Assembly (NCBI RefSeq): GCF_009931435.1 | Contig: NZ_CP043414.1 | DNA: 64,000 nt | Strand: one strand, 5' to 3' | Source of the DNA: Escherichia coli | GTDB taxonomy: Bacteria; Pseudomonadota; Gammaproteobacteria; Enterobacterales; Enterobacteriaceae | Translations under genes and position numbers: made by a program | Shown here: one piece after another, positions 5,268 to 29,169 of the stretch | Numbering within the stretch: position 1 is the stretch's first letter | Layout of the letters: each line of letters starts with the position of its first letter | The notes under the pieces: generated by a model | What the model was told of the DNA's origin: nothing | What the model saw: the letters and a program-made list of their open reading frames with translations, nothing else | Database searches by the model: none

Positions 5268-5412
5268 TAACGGTAAAGCCCTCACCGAAGCGAGGGCTTG
5301 AAGGAGAAGGGTTATGATGCGACTTGCCATCATACTGATTGTACTGTTACTCATAAGTTTGCCAGCTTATTAACAGTCAGTCACAGGGGAGGAGTCATCC
5401 TCCCTTACCCTT
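5268..5412 (-). ncRNA. sibC: Antisense sRNA SibC (antitoxin RNA overlapping ibsC); ends approximate
   Basis: Minus-strand promoter-like TTGACA (plus 5444-5449) N17 TAATTT (plus 5420-5425); minus-strand terminator hairpin gccctcgcttcggtgagggc + TTT near 5275-5300; fully overlaps ibsC. Confidence 0.5.
5314..5373 (+). CDS. ibsC: Type I toxin, 19-aa hydrophobic peptide (Ibs family)
   Basis: ATG ATG CGA ... TAT TAA encodes MMRLAIILIVLLLISLPAY; RBS aggagaagg 4 nt upstream; matches Ibs toxin family pattern and known serA-ygfA location of ibsC/sibC. Confidence 0.75.
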   Translation: MMRLAIILIVLLLISLPAY

Positions 5413-5473
5413 ACTCACTAAATTAGGTTAAAGAATCAACGATGTCAATCAGGGCGATGCAGGTGTGTCGCCC

Positions 5474-6094: not shown

Positions 6095-6280
6095 AGGGAA
6101 TCTCCGAGATGCCGCCGCAGGCTGTAACCCTTGAACCCTTGGTTCAAGGTGAATGTGTCGTCGCAGTTTTAAGGCTTCTCGGACGGACCGAGCATGCTCA
6201 CCAACCGCGGAGCGCCACATTCTTGTGGTATGAAATATCGGCTCAGGGGACTGGCCCGCTTGCGAACATCTCAGAGAAAT
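6095..6280 (-). ncRNA. ssrS: 6S RNA (RNA polymerase sigma70 holoenzyme-binding regulatory RNA)
   Basis: Reverse complement reads AUUUCUCUGAGAUGUUCGCAAGCGGGCCAGUCCCCUGAGCCGAUAUUUCAUACCACAAGAAUGUGGCGCUCCGCGG..., the recognised 6S RNA sequence; immediately upstream of ygfA. Confidence 0.93.
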
Positions 6281-16140: not shown

Positions 16141-16286
16141 GATGTCAAACTCAACATTGCCTGATGCACCTCGTTTATCAGGCCTACATAGTCTGTGCAA
16201 TGTATTGAATTTGCACGATCTTGTAGGCTGGATAAGGCGTTCACGCCGCATCCGGCATAATAAAAGCACTTTGTCATCAATAATTT
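16141..16286. repeat. REP/BIME element cluster between gcvP and ygfF
   Basis: Contains gcctgatgcacctcgtttatcaggcctaca and tgtaggctggataaggcgttcacgccgcatccggca, typical REP palindromes. Confidence 0.8.
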
Positions 16287-19744: not shown

Positions 19745-19910
19745 TGCCTTTGTAGGCCTGATAAGACGCGTCAGCGTCGCATCAGGCATCGGATCGCAAC
19801 TGCCGGATGCGGCGTGAACGCCTTATCCGGCCTACGGGCCGCGTCCTTGGTGTGATAAAGGCACCAAATCCCAGGCATGATAAGACGCGTCAGCGTCGCA
19901 TCAGGCAATA
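19745..19910. repeat. REP/BIME cluster (three REP palindromes) between yqfA and ygfZ
   Basis: Repeated gcctgataagacgcgtcagcgtcgcatcaggc and gccggatgcggcgtgaacgccttatccggcctac units. Confidence 0.85.
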
Positions 19911-24128: not shown

Positions 24129-25862
24129 GTGAAACAACAGATACAACTTCGTCGCCGTGAAGTCGATGAAACGGCAGACTTGCCCGCTGAATTGCCTCCC
24201 TTGCTGCGCCGTTTATATGCCAGCCGGGGAGTACGCAGTGCGCAAGAACTGGAACGCAGTGTTAAAGGTATGCTGCCCTGGCAGCAACTGAGCGGCGTCG
24301 AAAAGGCCGTTGAGATCCTTTACAACGCTTTTCGCGAAGGAACGCGGATTATGGTGGTCGGTGACTTCGACGCCGACGGTGCCACCAGCACGGCTCTAAG
24401 CGTGCTGGCGATGCGCTCGCTTGGTTGCAGCAATATCGACTACCTGGTACCAAACCGTTTCGAAGACGGTTACGGCTTAAGCCCGGAAGTGGTCGATCAG
24501 GCCCATGCCCGTGGCGCGCAGTTAATTGTCACGGTGGATAACGGCATTTCCTCCCATACGGGGGTTGAACATGCTCGATCGTTGGGCATTCCGGTTATTG
24601 TTACCGATCACCATTTGCCGGGCGAAACATTACCCGCGGCGAAAGCGATCATTAACCCTAACTTGCGCGACTGCAATTTCCCGTCGAAATCACTGGCAGG
24701 CGTGGGGGTGGCGTTTTATCTGATGCTGGCGCTGCGCACCTTTTTGCGCGATCAGGGCTGGTTTGATGAGCGCGGCATCGCAATTCCTAACCTGGCAGAA
24801 CTGCTGGATCTGGTCGCGTTGGGGACAGTGGCGGACGTCGTGCCGCTGGATGCTAATAATCGCATTCTGACCTGGCAGGGGATGAGTCGCATCCGTGCCG
24901 GAAAGTGCCGTCCAGGGATTAAAGCGTTGCTGGAAGTGGCCAACCGCGATGCGCAAAAACTCGCCGCCAGCGATTTAGGTTTTGCGCTGGGGCCACGTCT
25001 CAATGCAGCCGGGAGACTGGATGATATGTCCGTTGGTGTGGCGCTGTTGCTGTGCGACAATATCGGCGAAGCGCGAGTACTGGCAAATGAACTCGATGCG
25101 CTAAACCAGACGCGAAAAGAGATCGAACAGGGAATGCAGGTTGAAGCCCTGACCCTGTGCGAGAAACTGGAGCGCAGCCGCGACACGCTACCCGGCGGGC
25201 TGGCAATGTATCACCCGGAATGGCATCAGGGCGTTGTCGGTATTCTGGCTTCGCGTATTAAAGAGCGTTTTCACCGTCCGGTTATCGCTTTTGCGCCTGC
25301 GGGTGACGGTACGCTGAAAGGTTCCGGTCGCTCCATTCAGGGGCTGCATATGCGTGATGCGCTGGAGCGGCTAGACACACTCTACCCCGGCATGATGCTG
25401 AAGTTTGGCGGTCATGCGATGGCGGCAGGCCTGTCGCTGGAAGAGGATAAATTCGAACTCTTTCAGCAACGGTTTGGCGAACTGGTTACTGAGTGGCTGG
25501 ACCCTTCGCTATTGCAAGGCGAAGTGGTGTCAGACGGTCCGCTAAGCCCAGCCGAAATGACCATGGAAGTGGCGCAGCTGCTGCGCGATGCTGGCCCGTG
25601 GGGGCAGATGTTCCCGGAGCCGCTGTTTGACGGTCATTTCCGTCTGCTGCAACAGCGGCTGGTGGGCGAGCGTCATTTGAAAGTCATGGTCGAACCGGTC
25701 GGCGGCGGTCCGCTGCTGGACGGTATTGCTTTTAATGTCGATACCGCCCTCTGGCCGGATAACGGCGTGCGCGAAGTGCAACTGGCTTACAAGCTGGATA
25801 TCAACGAGTTTCGCGGCAACCGCAGCCTGCAAATTATCATCGACAATATCTGGCCAATTTAG
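24129..25862 (+). CDS. recJ: Single-stranded-DNA-specific 5-prime to 3-prime exonuclease RecJ (GTG start)
   Basis: Track ORF 577 aa; DHH/DHHA1 motifs. Confidence 0.95.
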   Translation: MKQQIQLRRREVDETADLPAELPPLLRRLYASRGVRSAQELERSVKGMLPWQQLSGVEKAVEILYNAFREGTRIMVVGDFDADGATSTALSVLAMRSLGCSNIDYLVPNRFEDGYGLSPEVVDQAHARGAQLIVTVDNGISSHTGVEHARSLGIPVIVTDHHLPGETLPAAKAIINPNLRDCNFPSKSLAGVGVAFYLMLALRTFLRDQGWFDERGIAIPNLAELLDLVALGTVADVVPLDANNRILTWQGMSRIRAGKCRPGIKALLEVANRDAQKLAASDLGFALGPRLNAAGRLDDMSVGVALLLCDNIGEARVLANELDALNQTRKEIEQGMQVEALTLCEKLERSRDTLPGGLAMYHPEWHQGVVGILASRIKERFHRPVIAFAPAGDGTLKGSGRSIQGLHMRDALERLDTLYPGMMLKFGGHAMAAGLSLEEDKFELFQQRFGELVTEWLDPSLLQGEVVSDGPLSPAEMTMEVAQLLRDAGPWGQMFPEPLFDGHFRLLQQRLVGERHLKVMVEPVGGGPLLDGIAFNVDTALWPDNGVREVQLAYKLDINEFRGNRSLQIIIDNIWPI

Positions 25863-25952
25863 CGTCATATTATCTATAAAAAAGAGCGTGGATTGGGTAC
25901 AATCCCGCTCTTATCACCGCATTTTGACTAGCTCAATAAAAGAAATCAGACC

Positions 25953-27051
25953 ATGTTTGAAATTAATCCGGTAAATAATCGCATTCAGGACCTCACGGAA
26001 CGCTCCGACGTTCTTAGGGGGTATCTTTGACTATGACGCCAAGAAAGAGCGTCTGGAAGAAGTAAACGCCGAGCTGGAACAGCCGGATGTCTGGAACGAA
26101 CCCGAACGCGCACAGGCGCTGGGTAAAGAGCGTTCCTCCCTCGAAGCCGTTGTCGACACCCTCGACCAAATGAAACAGGGGCTGGAAGATGTTTCTGGTC
26201 TGCTGGAGCTGGCTGTAGAAGCTGACGACGAAGAAACCTTTAACGAAGCCGTTGCTGAACTCGACGCCCTGGAAGAAAAACTGGCGCAGCTTGAGTTCCG
26301 TCGTATGTTCTCTGGCGAATATGATAGCGCCGACTGCTACCTCGATATTCAGGCAGGTTCTGGCGGTACGGAAGCACAGGACTGGGCGAGCATGCTTGAG
26401 CGTATGTATCTGCGCTGGGCTGAATCGCGTGGTTTCAAAACTGAAATTATCGAAGAGTCGGAAGGTGAAGTGGCGGGTATTAAATCCGTGACTATCAAAA
26501 TCTCCGGCGATTACGCTTACGGCTGGCTGCGTACAGAAACTGGCGTTCACCGCCTGGTGCGTAAGAGCCCGTTTGACTCCGGCGGTCGTCGCCACACGTC
26601 GTTCAGCTCCGCGTTTGTTTACCCGGAAGTCGATGATGATATCGATATCGAAATCAATCCGGCGGATCTGCGCATCGACGTTTATCGCGCATCCGGCGCG
26701 GGTGGTCAGCACGTTAACCGTACCGAATCTGCGGTGCGTATTACTCACATCCCAACCGGGATCGTGACCCAGTGCCAGAACGACCGTTCCCAGCACAAGA
26801 ATAAAGACCAGGCCATGAAGCAGATGAAAGCGAAGCTTTATGAACTGGAGATGCAGAAGAAAAATGCCGAGAAACAGGCGATGGAAGATAACAAATCCGA
26901 CATCGGCTGGGGCAGCCAGATTCGTTCTTATGTCCTTGATGACTCCCGCATTAAAGATCTGCGCACCGGGGTAGAAACCCGCAACACGCAGGCCGTGCTG
27001 GACGGCAGCCTGGATCAATTTATCGAAGCAAGTTTGAAAGCAGGGTTATGA
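25953..27051 (+). CDS. prfB: Peptide chain release factor 2, requires programmed +1 ribosomal frameshift at codon 26 (CTT TGA C)
   Basis: ATG at 25953 gives [25 protein letters not shown] then in-frame TGA at 26028-26030; +1 frame continues as [13 protein letters not shown]... to 27051 (track ORF 26170..27051); GGQ motif present. Confidence 0.93.
26016..26031 (+). other. prfB autoregulatory +1 frameshift site (internal SD AGGGGG + CUU UGA C)
   Basis: Sequence agggggtatctttgac read directly. Confidence 0.9.
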
Positions 27052-27060
27052 GGAACCAAC

Positions 27061-28578
27061 ATGTCTGAACAACACGCACAGGGCGCTGACGCGGTAGTCG
27101 ATCTTAACAATGAACTGAAAACGCGTCGTGAGAAGCTGGCGAACCTGCGCGAGCAGGGGATTGCCTTCCCGAACGATTTCCGTCGCGATCATACCTCTGA
27201 CCAATTGCACGCAGAATTCGACGGTAAAGAGAACGAAGAACTGGAAGCGCTGAACATCGAAGTTGCCGTTGCTGGCCGCATGATGACCCGTCGTATTATG
27301 GGTAAAGCCTCCTTCGTTACTCTGCAGGACGTTGGCGGCCGCATTCAGCTGTACGTTGCCCGTGACGATTTACCGGAAGGCGTTTACAACGATCAATTCA
27401 AAAAATGGGATCTCGGCGATATCCTCGGCGCGAAAGGTAAACTGTTCAAAACCAAAACGGGTGAACTGTCTATCCACTGTACCGAGCTGCGTCTGCTGAC
27501 CAAAGCACTGCGTCCGCTGCCGGACAAATTCCACGGTTTGCAGGATCAGGAAGCGCGCTATCGTCAGCGTTATCTGGATCTCATTTCTAACGATGAATCC
27601 CGCAACACCTTTAAAGTGCGTTCGCAGATCCTCTCTGGCATTCGCCAGTTCATGGTGAATCGTGGCTTTATGGAAGTTGAAACGCCGATGATGCAGGTGA
27701 TCCCAGGCGGCGCGGCGGCGCGTCCGTTTATCACCCATCACAATGCGCTGGATCTCGACATGTACCTGCGTATCGCGCCGGAACTGTACCTCAAGCGTCT
27801 GGTGGTTGGTGGCTTCGAGCGTGTATTCGAAATCAACCGTAACTTCCGTAACGAAGGTATTTCCGTACGTCATAACCCAGAGTTCACCATGATGGAACTC
27901 TATATGGCTTACGCGGATTACAAAGATCTGATCGAGCTGACCGAATCGCTGTTCCGTACTCTGGCACAGGATATTCTCGGTAAGACGGAAGTGACCTACG
28001 GCGACGTGACGCTGGACTTCGGTAAACCGTTCGAAAAACTGACCATGCGTGAAGCGATCAAGAAATATCGCCCGGAAACCGACATGGCGGATCTGGACAA
28101 CTTCGACTCTGCGAAAGCGATTGCTGAATCTATCGGCATCCACGTTGAGAAGAGCTGGGGTCTGGGCCGTATCGTTACCGAGATCTTCGAAGAAGTGGCA
28201 GAAGCACATCTGATTCAGCCGACCTTCATTACTGAATATCCGGCAGAAGTTTCTCCGCTGGCGCGTCGTAATGACGTTAACCCGGAAATCACTGACCGCT
28301 TTGAGTTCTTCATTGGTGGTCGTGAAATCGGTAACGGTTTTAGCGAGCTGAATGACGCGGAAGATCAGGCGCAGCGCTTCCTGGATCAGGTTGCCGCGAA
28401 AGACGCAGGCGACGACGAAGCGATGTTCTACGACGAAGATTATGTCACCGCACTGGAACACGGCTTACCGCCGACAGCAGGTCTGGGAATTGGTATCGAC
28501 CGTATGGTAATGCTGTTCACCAACAGCCATACCATCCGCGACGTTATTCTGTTCCCGGCGATGCGTCCGGTGAAATAA
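27061..28578 (+). CDS. lysS: Lysyl-tRNA synthetase (constitutive)
   Basis: Track ORF 505 aa, class II aaRS motifs; recognised LysS sequence. Confidence 0.95.
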
Positions 28579-28598
28579 GCATTACGTTATGCTCACAA

Positions 28599-28626
28599 CC
28601 CCGGCAAATGTCGGGGTTTTTTATTT
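28599..28626 (+). terminator. Rho-independent terminator after lysS (overlaps idi stop)
   Basis: Stem ccccggcaaatgtcgggg followed by T-run. Confidence 0.85.
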
Positions 28627-29169
28627 AAGCTGGGTAAATGCAGATAATCGTTTTCTGGCTTCGCGATTTGTCGCCTGCATCACCATCCACGGACTGAACG
28701 CCCACGGCGTGGCATCAATACCGCGTAAAACCGCTGCTAAATCACACCATTGATAATCCATCACTTCATCATCGTTGATCTGTAACGCACTGGTCGTGCG
28801 TGCGGCAAATACCGGACATACTTCATTTTCTACAATGCCATTCGGATCGGTGGCGCGGTAGCGAAAGTCAGGATAGACCGGTTCTGGTGCTGTTATTTCC
28901 ACACCCAGTTCAAAGCGGCAACGGCGGATCACCGCGTATTCGTTGCTTTCGCCCAGTTGTGGGTGCCCACAAACCGAGTTAGTCCACACGCCCGGCCATG
29001 CTTTTTTGCTAAGGGCGCGGCGGGTAACTAATAATTGCCCTTTGGCATTAAACAGCCAGCAGGAGAACGCGAGATGTAAGAGAGTGTCTGCCGTGTGTGC
29101 GGCATACTTTTCCAGCGTACCCGTGGGAACTCCCTGTGCATTCAATAAAATGACGTGTTCCGTTTGCAT
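28621..29169 (-). CDS. idi: Isopentenyl-diphosphate delta-isomerase (Nudix type I)
   Basis: Track ORF 182 aa, recognised Idi sequence. Confidence 0.93.

Follow-up and report, generated by a model that had tools for sequence, protein, structure and literature searches.

The programmed +1 frameshift site of prfB in the Escherichia coli sequence NZ_CP043414.1 and its counterparts in other bacteria

The autoregulation of prfB, the gene encoding release factor 2 (RF2), has been described for E. coli K-12 by Craigen and Caskey and by Weiss et al., as summarised in PMC12421855, and the published E. coli experiments comprise the ribosomal shift itself, its stimulation by a Shine-Dalgarno (SD)-like sequence and its response to the RF2 level (summarised in PMC12421855). 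In this system the pairing of the SD-like sequence with the anti-SD drives the tRNA out of the E site, tRNA-Leu takes up new pairing on UUU and the codon read next is GAC, and a high RF2 level favours termination whereas a low level favours frameshifting (PMC12421855). Ribosome profiling at the native locus gave a frameshifting efficiency of about 28% with the K-12 RF2 and of about 21% with the Ala246 form (E. coli B type) (PMC5373646). With reporters the shift amounts to about 40-90% depending on ribosome load, and inactivation of the SD-like sequence lowers it to about 10% (PMC6815119). A frameshift cassette of this kind is present in prfB of 64% of 12,753 genomes (PMC12421855). Here we describe the corresponding site in E. 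coli NZ_CP043414.1, using a window of 64 kb, which is the whole stretch of DNA that was analysed and to which all coordinates refer.

Sequence anatomy of the frameshift site

Read on the plus strand from the ATG at 25953, the window contains the succession CTT AGG GGG TAT CTT TGA C, and the following elements can be assigned:

25953..26027, plus strand: prfB ORF0, codons 1-25, the N-terminus of RF2 (from translation; start ATG 25953)
26016..26021, plus strand: internal Shine-Dalgarno-like stimulator AGGGGG (from sequence)
26022..26024, plus strand: 3-nt spacer, the E-site codon UAU (Tyr24) (sequence TAT)
26025..26028, plus strand: slippery CUU U, consisting of the P-site Leu25 codon (26025-26027) and the first base of the stop (from sequence)
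26028..26030, plus strand: codon 26, UGA in frame, a stop that is specific for RF2 and senses the RF2 concentration (from sequence)
26031, plus strand: C following the stop, resulting in UGAC, a poor context for termination (from sequence)
26029..27051, plus strand: prfB +1-frame ORF, codons 26-365 and the stop TGA (27049-27051) (from translation, 340 residues)

The first-pass annotation had pointed to an in-frame UGA at codon 26 preceded by CUU and AGGGGG, and every one of these elements was found at the position listed here. Its further claim of a textbook autoregulatory +1 frameshift is borne out as well, as the same elements are described in this way in PMC12421855 and the site is base for base that of K-12. 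All features that define such a site at the sequence level are present, namely a class-I RF2 as host gene, a stop decodable by RF2, CUU U, the purine-rich SD-like sequence and C 26031. AGGGGG together with U 26022 allows seven pairs with the anti-SD of the 16S rRNA, and C 26031 doubles as third base of the Asp26 codon GAC in the +1 frame. The 3 nt that separate the SD-like sequence from the slippery codon are the consensus spacing (PMC12421855).

The 16-nt pattern AGGGGGNNNCTTTGAC has a single match in the 64-kb window when both strands are searched and one mismatch is allowed, compared to a chance expectation of 0.01 derived from dinucleotide-preserving shuffles. An Rfam scan of the whole window at gathering thresholds revealed no RNA family over the prfB frameshift site, which is to be expected because the signal is linear and reportedly independent of folded mRNA (PMC6815119).

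The joined product and other routes to RF2

Joining 25953-26027 to 26029-27051, the check proposed along with the annotation, skips T 26028 and leads to a full-length RF2 of 365 aa. The opposite outcome, a joined product unlike the RF2 family, did not occur: the product scores 525.9 bits against NCBIfam TIGR00020 (prfB, peptide chain release factor 2; cut-off 370), and over its full length it shares 364 of 365 positions with E. coli RF2 as solved in the PDB structures 1gqe and 1ml5. The TIGR00020 match consists of one stretch, residues 12-362, that spans the 25/26 junction, and the RF1 models of NCBIfam score under their cut-offs. Furthermore, the product comprises the Pfam domains PCRF (31-219) and RF-1 (228-337) as well as the RF2 tripeptide SPF at 205-207 and GGQ at 250-252.

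As had also been claimed, naive ORF calling splits prfB, and the ORF list contains a 25-aa ORF (25953-26030) and a 293-aa ORF (26170-27051). The +1 frame stays open between 25975 and 27051, and its first ATG/GTG/TTG is located only at 26170; the lack of any earlier start codon in this frame explains the 293-aa fragment in the list. Taken at face value, the two ORFs could represent two translation units, a 25-aa leader ending at UGA26 and a truncated RF2 starting from ATG 26170, with no frameshift in between, and it is in favour of this reading that ATG 26170 is the first +1-frame start and that the 293-aa ORF contains both SPF and GGQ. Yet the start-less region 26029-26169 encodes the conserved residues 26-72, which align to domain 1 of RF2 (NCBIfam, structures), and with no +1-frame start before 26170 these RF2-matching residues are therefore unreachable by independent initiation. 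Residues 1-25 of ORF0 argue in the same direction, as the alignment shows them to be homologous to the N-termini encoded by uninterrupted RF2 genes of other taxa, and these genes (Amphritea, Marinobacterium, Nitrincola and others) align gap-free through the junction. Hence, we regard two separate translation units as extremely unlikely.

At the junction itself, uninterrupted genes read for example LR-TYLEYP or LR-VYLDYD, compared to LRGYLDYD in the window. The gap-free alignment fits a Leu25-Asp26 junction at which one base would be skipped and no residue added. This also bears on the question whether the frame could be restored in a different way than by a +1 shift of the ribosome, that is by readthrough of the UGA or insertion of selenocysteine, by a -2 ribosomal shift, or by transcriptional slippage in the runs of five G and three T. 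A -2 shift reaches the same frame, and a ribosomal +1 shift and a one-base deletion at the RNA level cannot be separated directly by sequence alone. In contrast, readthrough or selenocysteine insertion stays in frame 0, in which the next stop after UGA26 follows at 26034 and 24 more are encountered thereafter; with frame 0 closed by a total of 25 stops until 27051, RF2 therefore cannot be made by readthrough. A -2 shift would bring in one more residue (YLFDY), whereas the uninterrupted homologues are without an extra residue at the junction, and the loss of a G in the G5 run would read RGIFDY, as the +1 frame does in the window, not the conserved RGYLDY. For transcriptional slippage the runs are short, and in published studies of E. 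coli the event is ascribed to the ribosome, together with SD:anti-SD pairing and competition by RF2. Taken together, the gap-free junction and the published work disfavour a -2 shift and transcriptional slippage, and we assume that any of these other routes is highly improbable.

For annotation the preferred reading, a ribosomal +1 shift, has a practical value, since naive ORF calling in a pipeline turns the gene of an essential translation factor into a 293-aa fragment or a pseudogene, while the correct prfB call is a single 365-aa CDS, join 25953..26027 + 26029..27051. In RefSeq/PGAP the homologous E. coli gene is a CDS in two pieces, 1099 nt in length and marked "programmed frameshift", prfB of K-12 MG1655 (b2891) is likewise annotated as a joined CDS, and in the best-matching E. 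coli genome the annotated prfB product is identical to the joined product of the window.

Conservation of the cassette within and beyond E. coli

For a region of 1251 bp around prfB, 5425 out of 5426 complete E. coli genomes contain a match with 97.4-99.4% identity, each in a single copy, and the identity of the window's prfB to that of E. albertii is 95.3%. Over the 12-25 kb chunks of the window that were compared, the best of the 5426 complete E. coli genomes is 98.2-98.8% identical, which suggests that the window might stem from an under-sampled E. coli lineage or from a mosaic.

The split in the naive ORF call would also be obtained if prfB were a pseudogene or affected by a sequencing error, with an extra base near 26028 disrupting the gene and an only incidental resemblance to a frameshift signal. 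Several findings stand against this. The 42 nt from 25990 to 26031 are 100% identical in 5413 of the 5426 complete E. coli genomes, and no second prfB-like ORF was found in the examined part of the window. RF2 is considered to be essential for E. coli, which likewise counts against a pseudogene. Further evidence comes from other species, for which one genome per species was scanned with a degenerate pattern around the GGQ region, resulting in at least 120 loci. Being located about 224 codons downstream from the site of the shift, this anchor makes the sample independent of the cassette. Loci with SPF or SPY at 40-52 residues before GGQ were taken as RF2, and the usable foreign loci numbered 79.

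Among the matches listed, 63 of these 79 foreign RF2 loci, from several phyla, carry the cassette, defined as NTT and an in-frame stop in the correct frame, and the proportion of about 80% cassette-bearing loci among the matches listed agrees with the published 64-87% (PMC12421855). The codon distance is likewise kept: with respect to G250, 56 of the 64 first-detected candidate sites among the matches listed are located exactly 224 codons upstream, and all of them 222-228 codons upstream with the exception of the rejected L083. The automatic "cassette" of L083, GACCATGGATTTTGAC, is 243 codons away from GGQ and was discarded as a false positive. One locus (L103) was first scored as having no frameshift and was moved to the cassette-bearing group after alignment. 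Uninterrupted prfB genes account for 15 of the 79 sampled loci, and L015 was placed in neither group (matches listed).

The exact 16-mer AGGGGGTATCTTTGAC occurs in at least 35 foreign loci, out of 62 automatically detected cassettes. In these 62 foreign cassettes (matches listed) the stop is TGA in 61 cases, TAA in one and TAG in none, and this choice of UGA, rarely UAA and never UAG agrees with PMC12421855. The conservation of the single elements in the same 62 foreign cassettes, again among the matches listed, is as follows, with offsets counted from the T of TGA:

offsets -12 to -7: SD-like sequence, 76-100% conserved
offsets -6 to -4: spacer T, A, T, 100%, 98% and 90% conserved
offset -3: C of CTT, 97% conserved, a base that is not imposed by detection
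offset +3: C after the stop, 98% conserved despite being a third position in the +1 frame

The detection rule was NTT and a stop, so the offsets -2 to +2 are conserved partly by construction. In the SD-like sequence of the 62 foreign cassettes (matches listed) the conservation includes third codon positions: for the third positions at -10, -7 and -4 of the cassettes the information content is 1.79, 1.54 and 1.54 bits (62 foreign cassettes, matches listed), compared to means of 0.28 bits upstream and 0.42 bits downstream for third positions in the flanks (62 foreign loci, matches listed). This pattern marks the cassette as being under selection at the nucleotide level, beyond the needs of the protein. 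Strong conservation of synonymous positions and a cassette that recurs with an unchanged codon distance among 63 of the 79 foreign loci are both at odds with an incidental resemblance, and the probability of a pseudogene or a sequencing error appears to be vanishingly small.

Deviating cassettes were found in the loci L045, L007, L012, L044/L079/L087/L090 and L103. In Thiospirillum jenense the prfB cassette reads CTT TAA C with a UAA stop, in a Pantoea insect symbiont TTT TGA C, and in Candidatus Pantoea edessiphila AGGAGG TAT GTT TGA T, with a Val codon and a T after the stop. CGGAGC replaces AGGGGG in L044, L079, L087 and L090, of which L044 and L079 are of Acidobacteria type, and in L103 the cassette is present while ORF0 is devoid of ATG/GTG/TTG. 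The uninterrupted prfB loci include L002, L031, L054, L072, L076, L098 and L105, which by title comprise Amphritea (L002, L076), Marinobacterium (L031, L072) and Nitrincola (L054), the titles behind these names covering loci up to L081. The junction region of the uninterrupted genes still reads (T/V/Q)Y(L/M)(D/E)Y.

Mechanism, genomic setting and comparison with known systems

We consider it almost certain that the site in the window is the canonical E. coli prfB programmed +1 frameshift with autoregulation by RF2, and no feature of the sequence speaks against this reading. In detail, a ribosome initiating at ATG 25953 would come to hold CUU, codon 25, in the P site with UGA in the A site; UGA is decoded by RF2 alone, and the C that follows turns it into a poor stop. 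Abundant RF2 would terminate translation at UGA26 and set free a 25-aa peptide. With RF2 in short supply, the ribosome would pause at UGA26, the AGGGGG(U) located three bases upstream would pair with the anti-SD of the 16S rRNA and destabilise the E-site tRNA, and the peptidyl-tRNA-Leu would slip by one base from CUU to UUU. GAC (Asp26) would then enter the A site, and translation in the +1 frame would yield the 365-aa RF2. In this way RF2 would limit its own synthesis, as termination at UGA26 would compete with slippage. From the identity with the studied E. coli allele we infer that both the frameshifting and its response to the RF2 level most probably take place in the strain of NZ_CP043414.1 as well.

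The strength of the pairing was estimated with the 3' tail of the E. coli 16S rRNA (anti-SD), for which we take the established sequence to apply; the Rfam scan revealed no 16S gene in the 64-kb window. The predicted duplex with AGGGGGU has -9.8 kcal/mol, and the same calculation resulted in -1.3 kcal/mol for the initiation region of prfB (25933-25952) and -6.3 kcal/mol for that of lysS. A value of -12.6 kcal/mol for an 18-nt mRNA piece was discarded, as in this duplex the first base of the P-site codon was paired along with the spacer, an arrangement that is sterically not meaningful. Low ribosome load raises prfB frameshifting in reporters (PMC6815119), and it is possible that the weak start of prfB may be part of the design.

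The gene is located between recJ and lysS, with idi beyond in opposite orientation, and its downstream neighbour is:

27061..28578, plus strand: lysS, lysine--tRNA ligase (from the ORF and the annotation of homologous loci)

lysS starts 9 nt after prfB, a terminator scan revealed no terminator-like site between the two genes, and a strong terminator-like hairpin follows after lysS at 28597-28618. This arrangement fits a prfB-lysS operon. A search for sigma-70 consensus matches over 25700-28800 yielded no promoter-like site, and none upstream of prfB. The 90-nt spacer between recJ and prfB contains an imperfect hairpin (AGAGCG-GGAT / ATCC-CGCTCT, 25883-25911) with an A run before it, which the terminator scan flagged as terminator-like on the minus strand; two of the 90 spacer positions differ from K-12, both outside the hairpin.

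The window as a whole (1-64000) is E. coli-type core chromosome from gcvP to glyU with the gene order gcvP, serA, ssrS, recJ-prfB-lysS-idi, ygfK, xdhD, yqeB, ygeY, dpaL, ygeW, ygeV, xdhA, glyU. Its part from 1 to 25000 contains a multi-copy element with a median of 33 matching places per E. coli genome, which is likely to represent REP/BIME-type repeats, as for instance in the naRNA4 match at 19755-19832 on both strands. Rfam and ARAGORN scans identified the following RNAs:

5298-5448, minus strand: SIB RNA (type I antitoxin sRNA)
6097-6280, minus strand: 6S RNA
16180-16222, minus strand: ES036 sRNA, barely over the gathering score
62995-63068, plus strand: tRNA-Gly(CCC)

A comparison with known systems may start with the -1 frameshift of E. 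coli dnaX, which resembles prfB in having an internal SD-like stimulator upstream of the slippery site (PMC6815119). However, the dnaX shift is by -1 and takes place on an A AAA AAG heptamer, its SD spacing is longer and a stem-loop lies downstream, and dnaX gives rise to two functional products and is not an autoregulatory stop-codon sensor. With respect to the bacterial prfB cassettes, the window matches the consensus exactly, consisting of AGGGGG, a 3-nt spacer, CTTT, TGA and C, whereas AGGAGG, CGGAGC, a TAC spacer, TTT TGA, CTT TAA and GTT TGA T occur elsewhere and are absent here.

The closest system is prfB of E. coli K-12, which is embedded in the same neighbourhood xerD-dsbC-recJ-prfB-lysS-idi. 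The first 81 nt are identical, including codons 1-25 of ORF0, for which there is no difference, and the whole AGGGGG-TAT-CTT-TGA-C cassette, and UGA is codon 26 in K-12 as well. In total, 23 of 1099 nt differ from prfB of MG1655, of which 22 are synonymous, and the sole amino-acid difference is Ala246 in the window (GCA, 26689-26691) compared to the K-12-specific Thr246. Ala246 is the form of E. coli B and of most bacteria, and the K-12 form with Thr246 has a reduced activity (PMC5373646). Codon 27 is TAT in the window and TAC in K-12, and owing to the T at 26034 the window has a second frame-0 TGA at 26034-26036, two codons past UGA26. It is very unlikely, in our view, that this less common lineage, with the more active Ala246 form of RF2, the second frame-0 UGA and an identity of at most about 98.8% to any complete genome over the neighbouring 25 kb, has a shifted autoregulatory set-point, or that the 25-aa ORF0 peptide set free by termination has an independent function; no observation points to one or the other. 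In comparison with these systems, the prfB +1 frameshift site described here is an already known and canonical one that adds nothing to the textbook case.
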